From assembly GCA_040220235.1 (NCBI GenBank), contig JAVJTO010000070.1: a DNA stretch of 64,000 nucleotides; one strand, given 5' to 3'. How positions within the stretch are numbered: the first letter of the stretch is position 1; the number at the start of each line of letters is the position of its first letter. The translations under genes were made by a program, and so were the position numbers. This DNA comes from Coleofasciculus sp. B1-GNL1-01. GTDB taxonomy: Bacteria; Cyanobacteriota; Cyanobacteriia; Cyanobacteriales; Coleofasciculaceae. Below, in pieces: positions 6,116-15,825 of this stretch. The notes beneath the pieces were generated by a model. The model ran no database searches. It saw only the letters and a program-made list of their open reading frames with translations, and was not told where the DNA came from.

Positions 6116-8179
6116 ATGCCATCTTCTCACCAACCTCTGAACTACCCCACCACCCGCCAAGCTGATCAAGTAGACGACTATCATGGCACGAACGTCGCTG
6201 ATCCCTATCGCTGGTTAGAAGATCCCGACTCCGACGAAACCAAAGCCTGGGTAGAAGCACAAAATAAAGTCACCTTTGGCTATCTGGAAGACATCCCCCA
6301 ACGGGAATCCCTGAAACAGCGCATCACCAAACTCTGGAATTACGAAAAATATGGCATTCCCTATAAAGAAGGGAATCGCTACTTCTATTTCAAAAATGAT
6401 GGACTCCAGAACCAAAGCGTTCTCTACACCTTAACCTCTCTGGATGGAGAACCCAGAGTCCTGATTGATCCCAATACCCTCTCCGAAGACGGGACTATCG
6501 CCCTATCGGGTATCGCGATTAGTGACGATGGGAACCGCATGGCGTATGGTTTATCTACCTCCGGTTCCGACTGGCAAGAATGGAAAGTACGGGATGTGGA
6601 AACGGGAGACGATTTATCGGATCATCTTAAATGGGTGAAGTTTTCCGGTGCATCCTGGACAACGGATAATCAAGGCTTTTTCTATAGCCGCTATGATGAA
6701 CCCAATGATGCCACAAAATTAGAAGATGCTAATTATTATCACAAACTCTATTATCACAAACTCGGCACAGACCAATCCGATGATCTGTTAATTTACCATC
6801 GCCCTGACCAGAAGGAATGGATGTTTAATGGGTCGGTGACAGAAGATGGACATTATCTGATTATTTATGTCAGTCAAGGAACTGATCCCAAGAATCTGGT
6901 TTTCTACAAAGACTTACAAACTCCCGACTCTCCTATCGTCGAATTAATTTCAGAATTTGAAGCGAATTTCAGTCTGATTGACAATGACGGGTCAATCTTT
7001 TGGGTTCAAACTGACTTAGACGCACCACGAGGTCGGGTGATTGCCATTGATATTCATAACCCAGGGCGCGAGAACTGGCAAGAACTGATTCCCCAATCTG
7101 AAGAAACATTAGAAGATGTCGGTGTTCTGAATAACCAGTTTGTCGCCGATTACCTCAAAGATGCCCGTTCTTCGATTAAGATTTTTGACCTCAATGGTGC
7201 CTTTGTCCGAGAAGTGGAATTACCGGGAATTGGTTCAGCCGGGGGATTCGGCGGGAAGCGGTATGATACGGAAACCTTCTATGTATTTACCAGTTTCACC
7301 ACCCCAGCCACGATTTACCGCTACGATATGGTAACCGGGGAACGTTCCCTATTTCGCCAACCGACCGTAGACTTTGATCCGACTCAATACGAAACGCGAC
7401 AAGTGTTCTACCGGAGTAAAGATGGGACACAAGTGCCGATGTTTATTACCCACAAAAAGGGGTTGGCATTAGATGGCAATAATCCCACCTATCTCTATGG
7501 TTACGGTGGATTTAATATCTCCCTAACTCCCAGCTTTTCAATTAGTAATCTGGTGTGGATGGAGATGGGAGGCGTGTATGCGATTCCGAATCTCCGAGGC
7601 GGTGGAGAGTATGGCGAAGATTGGCATCAAGCGGGAACAAAGCTGAACAAGCAAAATGTGTTTGATGATTTTATTGCCGCAGCGGAATGGTTAATTGAGA
7701 ATAACTATACTCGCCCGCAAAAACTAGCAATCGGTGGCGGAAGTAATGGCGGTTTATTAGTCGGGGCTTGTATGACTCAGCGTCCCGATTTATTCCGTGC
7801 TGCCCTTCCTTCAGTTGGGGTTCTGGATATGCTGCGCTTCCATAAGTTTACGATTGGTTGGGCGTGGTGTTCTGATTTTGGTTCACCGGAAAATCTGGAG
7901 GAATTTAAGGCGCTTTATGCCTATTCTCCGTTACACAATCTCAAGCCAGGGACGGCTTATCCAGCTACATTAATTACGACGGCGGATCACGATGACCGCG
8001 TGGTTCCAGCCCATAGTTTCAAGTTTGCTGCAGCGTTACAAGCGGCACATGCTGGGGATAATCCGGTCTTAATTCGCATTGAAACTAAGGCGGGTCATGG
8101 TGCGGGAAAACCGACGGCTAAGATTATTGAAGAAATTGCCGATAAGTGGGCATTTTTGCAGCGAGTTATGGATGTCTAG
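6116..8179 (+). CDS. Prolyl oligopeptidase (S9A)
   Basis: DPYRWLED, catalytic GGSNGG, DHDDRV and AGHGAGK motifs. Confidence 0.97.
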   Translation: MPSSHQPLNYPTTRQADQVDDYHGTNVADPYRWLEDPDSDETKAWVEAQNKVTFGYLEDIPQRESLKQRITKLWNYEKYGIPYKEGNRYFYFKNDGLQNQSVLYTLTSLDGEPRVLIDPNTLSEDGTIALSGIAISDDGNRMAYGLSTSGSDWQEWKVRDVETGDDLSDHLKWVKFSGASWTTDNQGFFYSRYDEPNDATKLEDANYYHKLYYHKLGTDQSDDLLIYHRPDQKEWMFNGSVTEDGHYLIIYVSQGTDPKNLVFYKDLQTPDSPIVELISEFEANFSLIDNDGSIFWVQTDLDAPRGRVIAIDIHNPGRENWQELIPQSEETLEDVGVLNNQFVADYLKDARSSIKIFDLNGAFVREVELPGIGSAGGFGGKRYDTETFYVFTSFTTPATIYRYDMVTGERSLFRQPTVDFDPTQYETRQVFYRSKDGTQVPMFITHKKGLALDGNNPTYLYGYGGFNISLTPSFSISNLVWMEMGGVYAIPNLRGGGEYGEDWHQAGTKLNKQNVFDDFIAAAEWLIENNYTRPQKLAIGGGSNGGLLVGACMTQRPDLFRAALPSVGVLDMLRFHKFTIGWAWCSDFGSPENLEEFKALYAYSPLHNLKPGTAYPATLITTADHDDRVVPAHSFKFAAALQAAHAGDNPVLIRIETKAGHGAGKPTAKIIEEIADKWAFLQRVMDV

Positions 8180-10142: not shown

Positions 10143-10526
10143 ATGAGTACAGTGTTAGTCGTAGAGGACGATCTCACCCAACAACATTTGCTCTCTAAGC
10201 TGCTTGAGCGTGTAGGGCTGACAGTGATTGTGGCTGGGGATGGCGTGGAGGCGCTGGAGAAAATTCAGCAATTTCACCCAAATTTGGTGATTTTGGATAT
10301 TGTCCTTCCCCGGATGAATGGCTATGAAGTCTGTCGTCGTCTGAAATCGGAACCTGAGACTGAGAATATTCCGGTGTTAATGTGTTCGGCGAAAAAAGAG
10401 GATTTTGACCGCTACTGGGGAATGAAGCAAGGCGCGGATGCTTACTTAGCCAAGCCTTGTCATCCCCAAGAAATTGTCGAGACTGTAAAGAAATTATTAA
10501 AGTCCCATCATCAAGCGGCAAGCTGA
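10143..10526 (+). CDS. Single-domain response regulator (PilH/CheY-like)
   Basis: VLVVEDD, LVILDIVLPRMNGYEVCR, DRYWGMKQGADAYLAKP. Confidence 0.95.
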   Translation: MSTVLVVEDDLTQQHLLSKLLERVGLTVIVAGDGVEALEKIQQFHPNLVILDIVLPRMNGYEVCRRLKSEPETENIPVLMCSAKKEDFDRYWGMKQGADAYLAKPCHPQEIVETVKKLLKSHHQAAS

Positions 10527-10692
10527 TGGGCAATCGTCATTCGTCATGGCTTGAGGAATATTTACAATTAACTAATTCTAGAACTTAACATTAAGTCAGG
10601 GCGGGTTTCGTCACATCTGGGAAGACAATGATAGGAGTAAAACCGCCCCAGAAAGAAGCGCCAGAAAGACGCGCCATGGCACATCTCTACAT

Positions 10693-10890
10693 TCAACACT
10701 CAAAACGTCCTAACCCCACAGATTGCAAAAGCCCTGCCAACACATCAGGATGAGTATGACGTAATTGTAGCGCGATAGCGAGTGACTCATGCCAAATTCC
10801 GGCTTCTGCATAGAGTTGGGCTTGCTGGAGGAAATCTCCTGTCTCCAACTGACTGACGGACTAATTCTGTGGCTAATTCTCGACGCTACT
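10693..10890 (-). pseudogene. DUF928 C-terminal fragment with frameshift
   Basis: Reads ELATELVRQ / LETGDFLQQAQLYAEAGIWHESLAIALQLRHTHPDVLAGLLQSVGL. A 4-nt CAGT duplication breaks the frame and the 5' part is absent. Confidence 0.75.
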
Positions 10891-11290
10891 CTATTTTTGA
10901 AGAGGTAGAATATAATAAGTATAAGTAGCACCGCTCTAAATACAGCGTTTTCCGACTTGCTCATCTGTTCGGCATTTAATTAAACCTTATAAATGCCAAG
11001 AATGGCAAAATCCTTGTAGTGCGAGCATCTTGCTCGCTGCTAATACCCAATTTAAATGCATGACAGCTTATAATCCACCAACACAAGAGTAGGAAAAAAC
11101 TATTCCCTGGTGACTGGACTACACTGTGTTAGAAAGTGCTGTAAATCCTAGCTCCAAGCTTAACAATTCACGGGGCAGACCATTTTTCCTTAAAAAGTAA
11201 GTTGCATACACCCTCTAGAAGTCTTTGAGAGGAAGATGAGTTATTTTTCGGTAAATGCTTCCAAGATTTTGACCTATGCCTACTTGACCT

Positions 11291-11803
11291 ATGCCTACTT
11301 ACAGTGTCGGTGATGTTTTAGACATCATCAAAACTTTAACTCCTGAACAGAAGCTAGAATTACAGGGGCAACTCCCTAGTGTTTTAGCGACTATCCCGTC
11401 GGACTCAACACGTCCTGCGAAGAGTCAAAGCATGAGTGGAGTCAATATTACGGGAAGTAGTGATATTGATCTGAGTCAACTTCAAGCTGATGGGGGGAGC
11501 CAGATCAACCAAAGCAAGGCTCAAGCAACATTGCCAAATGCTGATTTGCAGGAAGCCCTGGAGCTGTTACAAAGGTTGAAGCAGGCGATCGCCTGCCATG
11601 ATAAACTTAATCCTCTGGTCAAAGAAGCGGCAGAGGAAAAGATCCAGACTATCCAGAAAGAAGTAGAAAAAGCACAACCTGATAAAGATTTAGTCAGCCA
11701 AGCAATTTCAACCTTGAAAAAAGGATTGGAAGGGGTGGAAGAACTAGCAGAACCCGTAACTAAAGTGGCTAGTTTAGTGGCGAAAGCTTGGATGGTGGTC
11801 TGA
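11291..11803 (+). CDS. Small helical protein with a central S/Q/N/G-rich amyloid-like segment; putative NLR effector
   Basis: 170 aa: helical N-terminus, SQSMSGVNITGSSDIDLSQLQ, then a helical domain ending in an amphipathic helix. Its stop overlaps the next ATG (TGATG). Confidence 0.8.
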   Translation: MPTYSVGDVLDIIKTLTPEQKLELQGQLPSVLATIPSDSTRPAKSQSMSGVNITGSSDIDLSQLQADGGSQINQSKAQATLPNADLQEALELLQRLKQAIACHDKLNPLVKEAAEEKIQTIQKEVEKAQPDKDLVSQAISTLKKGLEGVEELAEPVTKVASLVAKAWMVV

Positions 11804-14800
11804 TGATACAGGAAGTTCCCCTAAATCCCGGTGACGGCGGTAGTGAACAGGCTATCCACGATGTATCTGTGGTCAATAGTCAAAATGTGACGTTCAATCA
11901 GACGCAAATTATCCAGATCTCAGTGGAAGAGATCAAGACTCGGACACTCATTACGACATCACCCTATAAGGGATTGAAAACGTTTGAGTTAGAGGATAAG
12001 GAGCGGTTTTTTGGGCGAGATCAATGTCTTACTGGCTTGGTGAACGAGCTAGAACAAACTAATCTGATTTTGCTTTTGGGAGCATCGGGAAGTGGCAAGT
12101 CTTCAGTCATTCGAGCCGGTTTAATTCCTTGGTTGGCTCAAAAGTGGGGCAGTTATTTTGTCAGTCTAGTCTTTACGCCGGATCGAGACCCCTTTGATTC
12201 ACTCTATGCCAGTTTGTTGGGCAGGTATAAACAATCAGATTCACAGCTTGCTCGTCTTGTCAAGCCGGAAACATTAACTCAAGTGGTGCGATCGCTCAAA
12301 CATCAAGATGACTACTGGTTTATCCTGATCGATCAGTTTGAGGAGTTATTTACTACTACTGAATCAGACAAGCGGAATGTTTTTATCCAAGGGTTAGTCA
12401 ACCTTGTGAATACCCTAAGTAAAAAGAGCGATCACTCAGTTAAACTGGTAGCAACCATGCGGACAGACTTTCTAGATCGCTTGAGTCCCTATCCGGCTCT
12501 GATTAAACTGACGGATAAGCATCGTCCGATGATTGCTGATTTGCAAGCAGATGAGTTACGCCTAGCTATTGAGCAACCTGCTGCTCATCATGGCGTGGTG
12601 TTTGAATCAGGATTAGTGAAGGAAATTATTGATGATGTACAGGGACAAGCCGGATATTTACCCCTGTTGCAATACACCTTGAATTTGCTCTGGGAGATGG
12701 AAGTTCAGACTGAGAGCATTGAGGATCGGACGCTCAATCTCAGCAACTATCACAAGTTAGGTGGGGTGCGGGGCGCACTTCAGCAGCATGTTGATCGCAT
12801 CTACAGTGCTTTGTCTGACGCCGAACAAGTCGCTACCCGGAGAATTTGTCTCAAGTTAGTTGATATTGGTGCAGATACAAAATCTGGAACAGACTGGAAA
12901 CCTGTACGACGACGTGCTAACCGCTCGGAATTTAGTGAGCCGCTAGAGCAGACTGTTTTAACTCAGTTAGTGAATCAAAACCTGCTGGTGAGTAATCGGG
13001 TAAAAGAGTCTCAAGACAGCACAATCGAGATCGCCCATGAAGTATTACTTACCTCTTGGAAAACGCTGAATATTTGGATCGCGGAAAACCGTCAGGCGAT
13101 CGCCCTGCGGAATCGTTTAAATGATGATGTGATTCAGTGGCAAAAGACAACATCATCTGAGGACTTGTGGTCGGGATCTCGCTTAGAGCAGGCTTTAGAA
13201 CTGAGGCAGAATCAAACCTTTAATCAGGTTCTTGGTGGTTTTAGTCCAACAGCCAATCAGTTTTTAGAGCAAAGTCGGGATAAGCGCGATCAGCTAGAAA
13301 AAGAAAAACTTAGAAGAACTCAACTGACGGTGATAACGGCGATCAGTGTTGCTGTCTTACTAGGAGGTTTCTGGTGGCGCTCTGAGCGATTAAGACAAGA
13401 GACAGTATTGAGAGAAAATATTGCCACGGCAAGAAATCTATTGACCACAGACCCAACTCAAGCAGCAGTTAGATCCATCTACGTCGCAGGACAAAGCGCA
13501 GCTCACTACACAAATCTTTTGAGTTCAACAGAGAGTGTTTTGTTGGATGGTATTCAGAGAGCAAGAGAGGAAAATGTTTTCAATGAACATGAAGGACAAG
13601 TTTTATCTGTTGCCATGAGTCCTGATGGTCAAACAATCGCTAGTGCTGGGGCAGATGGCAAGGTAATACTTATTGATCTTCTAGACTTTTCAAAAGAAGT
13701 CATAGAAAATTTTCAGGATTCTTCAGCTACAAGTGTGGCATTTAGTCACAAGGGGCAATTTTTAGCAAGTGCTGATAGCAATGGAAATGTAAAAATTCGT
13801 CGATTGGAAGATCACTCTCTTGTGTGTGACTCTCCAAGCGAGGATGATAACATTTATTATCAATCAATATACGGTCTTGACCTTAAGACAATAGTGGAAT
13901 TTAATCCTAAAAATGAAACTTTTTTAGTTAATGCAGGTCCCAACAATCAGATACATCAATTACAACTAAGAAATAGAAATTGCAAGAAACAAAATATTTT
14001 GACTTTAGAAGATAAAAATGTAGATCAGAATCACGATTACGAAGTATATCCTCCATTAGCGAGATCTATCGCATTTAGCCCTGATGGACAACAATTAGCT
14101 ATTGGCTATGATTCTGGATTAATATTACATGATCTGTTAAATGAGACCACCCAAGTTTTATGGGAAGGAAGATCTGCAGAACCAGTTGAGTCGATATCTT
14201 TTAAAAATCGTATCTTCTTCAGTATCTGTATTGGTGAATGGGCAGAGGGTAATTCAATAACGATTAAAACACTCGATAAATCTCATAGTGACTTTAGAAC
14301 TCCTGAAGGATTCACAGTACATGAAGACTGTTCTCGCGCTGTTTTAGTAGACTCTGAGACTGACAGGATTATTAGCGGTGGTAATGATCGGGGTGATCGT
14401 AGTAATTTAGTTACCTTCATCTCATGGAAAGAGAGAGATTTATTTTCATTTATTGGTCATAAAGGCAGGGTGAATGCCTTGGCAATGAGTTCCGATAAAA
14501 AGCATCTTGTCAGTGCAGGTAGTGATGGCACAGTTAGACTGTGGAGCGTAGAAAATTTTCCTAACGATGTTGCTAGTCTTTTTAGGAATCAATTCAATGA
14601 GCAGTTAGAGGTTTGGGATTTAGTTGGTCGTCAGTTAAATCTAAAGAAACAAGACGAAGCAATTGAAATTCAAGGGAAAAGCGAAAGTCTAATTAAGACA
14701 GATGGTAAAAGCACTCCATTTGTTTCTCAGCAACGATATCCCAAGAAGTTTTTCGGGTACGATGGTCAGACAGTGATAACAGTAGAAACTATCTCAGCAT

Positions 14801-15375
14801 CTTCAAGCGAAACACCAGGTACTCCTGCTACTCTCCAACAATTAATTCTAATCAATCAAAGAGAAACAAATTCTCAATTAGGAAAAATTGAGCTGTCGGG
14901 TGAAGTTTGGTTTGCAGCCGCTAATCATAAACAGAATAAGCTCATAGTAATCAAACCAGACAAAATTGAGATTTTCAACTTCCAAGGGACACAATTAGAT
15001 TCATTCCCAAACGACAAAGAAGCTAATGTTGCTGCCATTAGCCCCGATGGGAGAATGTTCGCAATAGCTAAAGAGCATTTTAGTCCTGGTTTCCGCGCTA
15101 CTGCTTTACAACTCTTTGATATGAAAGGCAAAGCTATAGCAAACTTTGAGAATGAAGGTATAGTAAGCGTGTTAGGATTTAGTTCTGACAGCAGACACGT
15201 TATAACTGAGAAATTCGGTGAAATTCATTTATTTCCTGCTAATTGGCAAGCCTCCTTAGAAATTCTCTGCGATCGCCTTCGTCATCATCCTGTCTTGACT
15301 AATCCCCAAGACGAGATTGCCAGAGGTGCCAGGGAAACGTGTCAGAGTTATGCTCCAAGCTGGCAAGCCAAGTGA
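11803..15375 (+). CDS. NLR-like STAND receptor: short N-terminal motif, nSTAND1 NTPase, TM helix, WD40 repeats
   Basis: SPYKGLKTF..FFGR, Walker A GASGSGKSS, Walker B ILIDQFEELF, LPLLQY, EIAHEVLL, WD40 repeats (GHKGRVNALAMSSD..SAGSDGTVRLW). Confidence 0.92.
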   Translation: MIQEVPLNPGDGGSEQAIHDVSVVNSQNVTFNQTQIIQISVEEIKTRTLITTSPYKGLKTFELEDKERFFGRDQCLTGLVNELEQTNLILLLGASGSGKSSVIRAGLIPWLAQKWGSYFVSLVFTPDRDPFDSLYASLLGRYKQSDSQLARLVKPETLTQVVRSLKHQDDYWFILIDQFEELFTTTESDKRNVFIQGLVNLVNTLSKKSDHSVKLVATMRTDFLDRLSPYPALIKLTDKHRPMIADLQADELRLAIEQPAAHHGVVFESGLVKEIIDDVQGQAGYLPLLQYTLNLLWEMEVQTESIEDRTLNLSNYHKLGGVRGALQQHVDRIYSALSDAEQVATRRICLKLVDIGADTKSGTDWKPVRRRANRSEFSEPLEQTVLTQLVNQNLLVSNRVKESQDSTIEIAHEVLLTSWKTLNIWIAENRQAIALRNRLNDDVIQWQKTTSSEDLWSGSRLEQALELRQNQTFNQVLGGFSPTANQFLEQSRDKRDQLEKEKLRRTQLTVITAISVAVLLGGFWWRSERLRQETVLRENIATARNLLTTDPTQAAVRSIYVAGQSAAHYTNLLSSTESVLLDGIQRAREENVFNEHEGQVLSVAMSPDGQTIASAGADGKVILIDLLDFSKEVIENFQDSSATSVAFSHKGQFLASADSNGNVKIRRLEDHSLVCDSPSEDDNIYYQSIYGLDLKTIVEFNPKNETFLVNAGPNNQIHQLQLRNRNCKKQNILTLEDKNVDQNHDYEVYPPLARSIAFSPDGQQLAIGYDSGLILHDLLNETTQVLWEGRSAEPVESISFKNRIFFSICIGEWAEGNSITIKTLDKSHSDFRTPEGFTVHEDCSRAVLVDSETDRIISGGNDRGDRSNLVTFISWKERDLFSFIGHKGRVNALAMSSDKKHLVSAGSDGTVRLWSVENFPNDVASLFRNQFNEQLEVWDLVGRQLNLKKQDEAIEIQGKSESLIKTDGKSTPFVSQQRYPKKFFGYDGQTVITVETISASSSETPGTPATLQQLILINQRETNSQLGKIELSGEVWFAAANHKQNKLIVIKPDKIEIFNFQGTQLDSFPNDKEANVAAISPDGRMFAIAKEHFSPGFRATALQLFDMKGKAIANFENEGIVSVLGFSSDSRHVITEKFGEIHLFPANWQASLEILCDRLRHHPVLTNPQDEIARGARETCQSYAPSWQAK

Positions 15376-15477
15376 TTGTAAGAGGTAAGGAATTTATTAT
15401 GCTAGAACGGGTGAGGTAGTAAGGATTGACTAGGCAATCATCGCCGCTTCAATGAAGTTTGGCATTGTATGCTAGCC

Positions 15478-15825
15478 TCAAAACAGTTCTTCGCTTTGCA
15501 TCAAGTCCTGTACTTTTCCTACATAACTCACTAGACTCCAGACTTCGTCTTGAACGGAATAGGTAGCTACTACATGAATATCAACGCATCTATATATATA
15601 TTGATCAACGTTTAACAAGTCAAAAGCCTCGTACACCCAAACCATTCTTCGGGAACGAGACCATTGAACGGCAGTGGCACTAACCGCACCCGATGCTACC
15701 AGTAAATCTGCGGTCGCGTTGACAATTCCGGCTGGCAGTATCTTTTCCATTCCGGGCTTCGCGCCCAGAGTGACAATGTTCAGTGCTACCTTACGCGCTG
15801 TGTTACTGGGTTTGTCTTTGTACAT
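15478..15825 (-). CDS. Hypothetical protein
   Basis: 115 aa ORF with ATG start; no family recognised. Confidence 0.55.
   Translation of the reverse strand: MYKDKPSNTARKVALNIVTLGAKPGMEKILPAGIVNATADLLVASGAVSATAVQWSRSRRMVWVYEAFDLLNVDQYIYRCVDIHVVATYSVQDEVWSLVSYVGKVQDLMQSEELF

Follow-up and report, generated by a model that had tools for sequence, protein, structure and literature searches.

The question raised by this locus is whether a short motif common to two adjacent genes couples a sensor to an output protein. The genes lie in a 64,000-nucleotide stretch (the window, meaning the whole of the analysed DNA) of contig JAVJTO010000070.1 from the cyanobacterium Coleofasciculus sp. B1-GNL1-01, whose genome comprises 8.66 Mb. 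The first gene encodes a small protein with a C-terminal helical bundle, and the second a large receptor composed of a nucleoside triphosphatase (NTPase) of the nSTAND1 type and WD40 repeats. In fungi, and since 2020-2024 in bacteria as well, it is established that a sensor resembling the NOD-like receptors (NLRs) can activate a killer protein by amyloid-type signalling. A first-pass annotation of the window proposed that the two genes form a pair of this kind, related to the bacterial BASS/Bell loci but with a different layout. The comparison of relatives described below shows that, at the level of sequence, the two genes are inherited together and that their motifs are homologous and co-vary.

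Strong matches to the small protein were collected at 39 loci, namely 4 on genome contigs, 6 on metagenome contigs and 29 from whole-genome searches, the window included, while the related-locus search of viral contigs found none. An adjacent same-strand gene of the nSTAND1 type, opening with the motif, is present in 32 of the 39, and a further locus (L070) retains upstream a 121-aa nSTAND1 fragment (7477-7839) that still carries it. The linkage of small-protein homologues to STAND genes expected by the first-pass annotation was therefore found. Two receptors, those of the window and of L038, were assigned to nSTAND1 through Pfam, and the remaining ones through a profile of the NTPase region or their SPYxG and Walker-A sequence. 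At two loci (L074 and L075), the contig ends just upstream of the small gene.

Furthermore, the motifs of the two partners change together. Among 16 non-redundant lineages (partners less than 70% identical), the mean score of cognate motif pairs was 54.2. Permuting the partners gave 37.2±3.0, and 54.2 was reached in 0 of 10000 permutations, a figure that is not a strict probability because the lineages are related. The score matrix contains distinct motif classes that switch simultaneously in both partners. The motif pair of L052 is QQSQSFGNITMGDGN and QQVQTFGDISMGDGN, and that of L035 is QPPVSQSIGSMTSSGSGNKVAVTQAGRDAKIDQ and QPPRQQSVGNTTASGAENRAAVANAGRDVRIDQ (score 103); the pair of L034, a fusion to a CHAT domain, scores 82. 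Profiles built from one side also recognize the other. With the effector-side profile, the N-termini of 11 of 33 receptors were retrieved at E<0.01 and those of 15 of 33 ranked above the best background open reading frame (ORF), and the receptor-side profile retrieved 9 of 33 small proteins at the same threshold, with 19 of 33 above background (19,639 ORFs of the organism's own genome, less the window's two genes). Conservation and co-variation of the motif in both partners, as anticipated, are thus borne out. Since matching motifs change together across many genomes, this tag probably passes an activation signal from the sensor to its partner, and a functional sensor/partner pair coupled by the motif is very probable.

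The gapless alignment on which the initial proposal was based is present in the window pair where it had been placed: the 21-mers, which start in the small protein at residue 45 and in the receptor at residue 15, share five identities and reach a BLOSUM62 sum of 30. When 32 gene pairs are aligned jointly, both 21-mers fall into homologous columns, at which other lineages match much more strongly. The proposed length of 21 residues proved too short, as the shared segment reaches approximately 32 residues in the joint alignment (Table 1). By sequence comparison, the window clade is the most diverged motif class, each side being well conserved within the clade.

As for the nature of the motif, the effector side is enriched in Q, N, G and S and the receptor side in Q, N, T, V and I, and both are poor in K, R, P and L. 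Specifically, Q, N and G account for 11.2, 10.9 and 12.7% of effector-side residues (5.9, 4.3 and 6.8% in the background), and P and L for 1.0 and 2.7% (5.0 and 11.0%). The accessible text of Dyrka et al. 2020 (10.1101/2020.01.06.895854) reports this same bias for BASS motifs, with Q, N, G, V and I raised and K, P and L lowered. In the AlphaFold2 monomer model of the small protein (mean predicted local distance difference test score, pLDDT, of 69), residues 35-81 have a pLDDT below 50, leaving the motif disordered between the N-cap and the bundle. A complex prediction with two copies each of receptor residues 1-56 and partner residues 36-84 gave a score of 0.02 against a mark of 0.32, which counts neither way. 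In L035 and P0059, two relatives, the second half of the motif contains 'QAGRD', where the window has 'LQADGG'; by eye only, this resembles the BASS1 core, of the type [VI][YF]QAGRD..[IV] among the motif sequences in the accessible part of the PMC8086366 supplement. Nine exact 5-6-mers taken from window-type and FG-type motifs had no match among the BASS motif sequences searched in that part of the supplement, and the two of the nine that did give hits, TFGDI and VTFNQ, matched, in the passages displayed, only control fragments derived from the PDB.

These properties bear on the alternative that the motif is a docking peptide. In this case, heterotypic contacts, for instance by beta-strand augmentation or in a short beta-solenoid of a few chains, would hold the small protein at the receptor, either constitutively or upon activation, and no templated polymerisation would take place; in all other respects the biology would stay the same, with a sensor and a recruited output protein. 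Co-variation and linkage reveal coupling but not its physical form, and a heterotypic interface would fit equally well the motifs of the window clade, which are each strongly conserved yet identical at 5 of 21 positions. However, the composition and length of the motif are those reported for amyloid signalling motifs, it is disordered in isolation, and 12-30 residues of the two sides are nearly identical in other lineages, as in-register stacking predicts. Docking, in either form, is accordingly a real but unlikely alternative, and templating of the amyloid type is somewhat favoured, by analogy, as the mode of coupling.

The receptor was claimed to be an nSTAND1 protein with a transmembrane (TM) segment and without an effector domain at its N-terminus, and the domain analysis agrees. 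The nSTAND1 family PF20703 matches with an E of 8.8e-109 and 365 bits (gathering cut-off 27.1) over model positions 1-377 of 379, and neither NACHT nor NB-ARC is among the best 25 of the 55 Pfam families listed for the protein. Ahead of the NTPase stand 53 residues (about 45 in the original claim), with no effector domain of the receptor's own. WD40 repeats (PF00400, E 1.9e-27) and other propeller matches cover residues ~550-1135. The most hydrophobic 19-mer (mean hydropathy 1.65), a predicted TM helix, separates the two regions, and a corresponding segment, flanked by basic residues, lies between NTPase and WD40 in 22 of the 22 long receptors examined, 446-510 residues after the start of the NTPase (SPYxG). 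A single segment of this type should place NTPase and WD40 on opposite sides of the membrane, and the WD40 propellers may be extracytoplasmic.

The remainder of the genome indicates what normally occupies the N-terminal position. In five of the six other strong nSTAND1 paralogues, a Peptidase_C14 caspase domain (E 1e-7 to 1e-18) stands where the receptor has its motif, which identifies this position as an effector slot. The receptor carries in this slot a tag pointing to an effector that is supplied in trans.

That effector candidate has the architecture ascribed to it by the first-pass annotation: AlphaFold2 and hydropathy both support a helical N-cap, an internal disordered motif and a C-terminal helical domain that ends in a hydrophobic helix. 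The N-cap (helices 6-14 and 18-32, pLDDT 78-86) has the conserved consensus 'MP[TK]Y..[DE][VI]L[DE]II' in the family alignment; it is missing from family members of 125-145 aa, CHAT takes its place in others, and in short relatives the motif is N-terminal. The bundle consists of helices 84-102, 108-125, 132-145 and 150-169 and begins ~7 residues after the motif. Its invariant or near-invariant columns (L, K, E, P, D, G and A) form no catalytic-looking set, and its tail of 12-17 hydrophobic residues behind a conserved Pro has a mean hydropathy of 1.43, compared with -0.16 for the whole domain.

The bundle is a portable, recurrent C-terminal module. Searched against 1.84 billion representatives at E≤0.001, a profile of the last 92 residues matched 149 clusters; as counted from the table of matches, the match ended within 10 residues of the C-terminus in 136 of them. 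Most of these proteins measure 120-185 aa and consist of motif and bundle only; 18 reach 300 aa or more. A Pfam scan of 28 longer members detected six with an N-terminal CHAT domain, two with TRADD-like_N (one of them also with CHAT), one with HetE-N (at the cut-off), one with DUF488 and one with LRR-Roc-COR, the bundle following directly behind this last NTPase; three gave weak squalene-cyclase-like matches and 12 no match at all. Five further CHAT fusions were found in genomes, four of them adjoining an nSTAND1 gene. A G/N/Q-rich stretch precedes the bundle in all of the bundle sequences inspected. In the distant members P0134, P0142, P0152 and P0154, a Gly-Asp-rich tag (…GDK..AGDNIGGIQNIG.F.NV…) replaces the SQSxG-type motif; a tag differing to this extent implies that the same bundle may be addressed by several tag families.

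The breadth of this family also gives rise to a second alternative, in which the small protein regulates or anchors rather than kills. The bundle would keep the motif inert, cap the motif of the receptor or hold fused enzymes such as CHAT at the membrane, with the true output coming from other proteins that bear the motif or from the receptor. Its occurrence behind CHAT, TRADD-N-like, HetE-N, DUF488 and Roc-COR domains, its short hydrophobic tail and its generic fold would all suit such a role. In opposition to this, the receptor lacks an effector domain, motif and bundle alone make up most family members, and the motif profiles, run against the organism's own genome, match no protein beyond the two of the window at E<0.1. 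A regulatory or anchoring protein, with the output elsewhere, is therefore improbable, more so than docking.

Taken together, the preferred reading is that of a two-gene, NLR-like module, a BASS-like pair of receptor and effector with a non-Bell effector, an inverted motif position and an nSTAND1 receptor, to which a probability of roughly 0.55 is assigned. A trigger bound by the WD40 part would cause the NTPase to oligomerise and bring the N-terminal motifs together. The clustered receptor motifs would then take a stacked beta (amyloid-like) fold, recruiting the motif of the partner and templating it. With only ~7 residues between the end of the motif and helix 1, refolding of the motif would open up the bundle and release the hydrophobic C-terminal helix, which would act on the membrane beside the membrane-anchored receptor, so that the cell is killed or arrested. 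In relatives, a CHAT protease or other death-type domains attached to the motif-plus-bundle unit would be concentrated likewise. That the bundle is a membrane-acting killer, an assignment made by analogy, is slightly less than an even chance.

A broader proposal, put forward tentatively, is that motif plus bundle constitute an undescribed, widespread executioner cassette of multicellular-type bacteria with a swappable N-terminal tag, wired here to a membrane-anchored nSTAND1 protein with extracytoplasmic WD40 repeats. Equally tentatively, the cassette would mirror Bell and HeLo proteins, with the address tag first and the buried hydrophobic helix last.

Several observations weigh against the amyloid-type pair and its killer bundle. 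The window pair has a Smith-Waterman score of 33, while shuffled versions of the receptor N-terminus average 26.5±4.4 and attain 33 in 103 of 1000 cases; the effector-side profile, built from 33 relatives, gives the window receptor only an E of 7.2, and the receptor-side profile omits the window small protein up to E 10. The shared motif announced for this pair is homologous in register when aligned jointly with its relatives, but is not significant alone. Four loci (L037, L071, L072 and L073) have no nSTAND1 gene in their 5-8 kb flank. None of the tests made here shows beta or amyloid structure of the motif, and templating is inferred. The hydrophobic tail is too short to span a bilayer alone, and the CHAT and TRADD-N-like fusions allow the bundle to be an adaptor or anchor instead of a killer. 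Moreover, fold searches led to generic four-helix bundles and to no specific match of the HeLo, MLKL or CC type: Foldseek with the AlphaFold2 model found nothing in the PDB at E≤0.001 (best E 0.43), a profile search of PDB sequences found nothing below E 0.01, and VIA-align reached a Z of 12.1 with generic four-helix bundles only, below the level at which the tool is informative for helical bundles. The ESM Atlas look-up of the bundle returned unnamed or DUF4404-labelled clusters (0.90-0.91, within the chance range). Finally, contigs of a close relative occur in four metatranscriptome libraries from four studies, and one of 4568 nt spans 11042-15593, with both genes, little else and 57 differences, which speaks for the pair; such a contig, however, attests presence in the library and proves neither transcription nor a single transcript, nor does it give a level of expression.

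Two further explanations are very improbable. The small-gene stop and the receptor ATG overlap by 1 nt (TGA at 11801-11803, ATG at 11803-11805), from which a programmed frameshift or read-through could fuse both proteins and make the motif a repeat internal to one chain; however, spacers of 1-293 nt separate the genes outside the window clade and the receptor comes first in L033, so that the motif pairing is conserved and the junction is not, and the fusion is rejected. A chance likeness of two low-complexity, Q/N/S-rich segments with no functional link would accommodate both the insignificance of the window pair alone and the fairly high score of non-cognate pairs (mean 37), but not the cognate mean that no permutation attained, the matches of the cross-side profiles, the joint switching of motif classes or the linkage at 32 of 39 loci.

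The same junction qualifies an earlier claim. Both genes and their TGATG overlap are as described and can be read directly from the sequence, and the proposed translational coupling holds for the window clade, where loci L002-L005 have a 4-nt ATGA overlap, but does not extend to the other lineages, with their variable spacers and one reversed order. The receptor frame opens mechanically at an in-frame TTG (11788); a start at ATG 11803 is supported by the N-terminus 'M[TI]QE[FV]', which orthologues keep.

The amyloid-type reading is best judged against the systems that it resembles. The Bell/BASS/NLR pairs of filamentous bacteria, as far as covered by the accessible text of Dyrka et al. 2020, occur in Cyanobacteria too and are also adjacent, mostly collinear and often overlapping genes, in which a small helical protein accompanies a STAND-repeat receptor without its own effector. 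A 20-30-residue motif rich in Q, N, G, V and I is shared by the N-terminus of the receptor and the small partner, and the text mentions CHAT as another domain that bears the motif. The BASS motif, however, is C-terminal, behind an N-terminal Bell domain, whereas the motif of the small protein occupies residues 45-76 of 170, ahead of a C-terminal bundle without a Pfam match, and the nucleotide-binding oligomerisation domain is NB-ARC or NACHT in BASS pairs and nSTAND1 with a TM segment here. According to the same text, the Bell domain is a helical domain of ~100 residues whose hydrophobic helix is N-terminal and which has an acidic residue at position 2-3. The small protein, compared by description only, lacks these hallmarks, as it starts MPTYSVGD and its hydrophobic helix is the last. 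Since the screen described in that text considered only Bell C-termini against NB-ARC/NACHT N-termini, the present layout falls outside it. A 2025 paper similarly places amyloid signalling motifs at NLR N-termini or effector C-termini. The description of the locus as a BASS-like pair with a different layout was thus largely right in its architecture, with the correction that the bundle is portable and recurs behind other domains.

HET-S/NWD2 of Podospora offers a comparable logic, in which an N-terminal NLR motif templates the motif of a partner and a helical domain with a buried hydrophobic terminal helix is activated. Its polarity is mirrored, with HeLo N-terminal and the prion domain C-terminal, it belongs to a fungus and not a cyanobacterium, and it has no sequence or specific fold match to the small protein. 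The Bab/Agp (BASS11) system of E. coli, from the accessible text of 10.1101/2024.11.07.622273, is an experimentally supported case in which an abortive-infection sensor activates a small helical killer via a shared amyloid motif, and BASS11 also occurs on CHAT, TIR and EAD7 proteins. In contrast to the window pair, the sensor is of the TPR-GreA/B-C-PIN type rather than a STAND NTPase, Bab carries its motif at the C-terminus, and the helical domain, which is related to Bell, has its hydrophobic helix at the N-terminus.

The nSTAND1 conflict systems of Kaur et al. 2021 (PMC8195603), in the text accessible, share the NTPase clade and the use of a neighbour-encoded effector in trans via a shared N-terminal element, but the coupling element there is a folded Death-like effector-associated domain and here a short disordered motif. 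The word 'amyloid' appears once in PMC8195603, in the reference list, and never with nSTAND1; in the nSTAND1-related literature searched, it was likewise absent or confined to reference lists, never in connection with nSTAND1. No description of the motif-plus-bundle cassette was found in the literature, bioRxiv supplementary tables being outside the search. Among catalogued systems, the bundle matches protein B of the PADLOC candidate system PDC-M14 (PDC-M14B): residues 69-163 of the small protein match the last 90-100 positions of four profiles (best E 1.5e-8), although this covers only the C-terminal third of profiles 261-275 positions long (169-259 of 267), and the receptor has no PDC-M14 match. 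No paper mentioning PDC-M14 was found. EACC1 (Kaur et al. 2020) was dropped as a candidate, as this single-TM domain is paired with caspase proteins and differs from the small protein.

With regard to its distribution, the small protein has 47 homologue clusters, of which all with a named source are cyanobacterial, and no Pfam or NCBIfam family above cut-off. With the family profile, it was detected in 25 of 401 genomes from a phylum-wide sample (E≤0.001), in 27 of 401 from an order-wide one (E≤1e-10) and in 0 of 27 other genomes of its own family, 6 of the same genus included; these counts characterise the small gene as accessory and patchily distributed. Pentapeptide-repeat proteins of ~490-640 aa (L014-L025, e.g. 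L015:91-1920) match the profile weakly in their C-terminal parts (E 1e-6 to 1e-8) and were excluded from the counts of family members.

Some loci appear altered. At L004:6513-12160, the orthologous receptor stops at 866 aa and is followed by a 551-aa transposase-like ORF on the opposite strand and a 258-aa WD40-like ORF, probably a disruption by an insertion sequence. L070-L073 are decay states of the system, one with a receptor remnant (L070) and three with orphan small genes (L071-L073), the motif of L072 being degenerate.

Upstream of the small gene, positions 11270-11299 hold a perfect 15-bp tandem duplication (TGACCTATGCCTACT twice). The start codon of the gene lies in the second copy, and the first provides an in-frame ATG, two codons and TGA, that is, a mini-ORF of three codons. 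Farther upstream, at ~10900-11071, the summed contig depth in four RNA libraries is at least 10^4, against tens over both genes; many unrelated RNA-library contigs break at 11070/11071, and a GC-rich, hairpin-like sequence, GTGCGAGCATCTTGCTCGC, lies within the stretch. A dispersed repeat common to many organisms is the probable explanation, and an Rfam scan of 10400-11400 gave no credible match.

Table 1. Coordinates of the gene pair in the window and of the nSTAND1 paralogues elsewhere in the same genome.
Feature	Position	Strand	Description
Small partner gene	11291..11803	+	170-aa ORF: N-cap, motif, four-helix bundle
N-cap	11291..11389	+	residues 1-33, two short helices
Effector-side shared motif	11423..11518	+	small-protein residues 45-76; earlier 21-mer at 11423-11485
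C-terminal four-helix bundle	11540..11800	+	residues 84-170; hydrophobic last helix behind conserved Pro
TGATG stop/start overlap	11801..11805	+	read directly from sequence
Receptor gene	11803..15375	+	1190 aa from ATG: motif, nSTAND1, TM segment, WD40 repeats
Receptor-side shared motif	11845..11943	+	receptor residues 15-47; earlier 21-mer at 11845-11907
nSTAND1 NTPase domain	11962..13158	+	residues 54-452; PF20703
Hydrophobic 19-residue segment	13318..13374	+	predicted single TM helix; basic residues on N-terminal side
WD40/beta-propeller sensor region	13450..15372	+	PF00400 and several propeller families
Caspase-nSTAND1 paralogues, own genome	C102:88827-92996, C151:1002-5375, C87:11812-14826, C63:118107-121853, C123:19631-26746		
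Sixth nSTAND1 paralogue, own genome	C119:49091-53059		starts directly at NTPase

The pair would preserve the coupling logic of the known amyloid-signalling systems with another effector domain, another motif position and another NTPase clade as its three changed parts, and a new candidate effector module has been brought out alongside it. The bundle family offers at least 149 protein clusters for testing, and the co-varying short motif pairs are natural specificity variants for cross-seeding. From the conserved TM segment a further question arises, namely whether sensing by a bacterial NLR can take place outside the cytoplasm. If the reading of motif plus bundle as an executioner cassette is true, a new NTPase clade and extracytoplasmic sensing would be added to the range of amyloid-type signalling.

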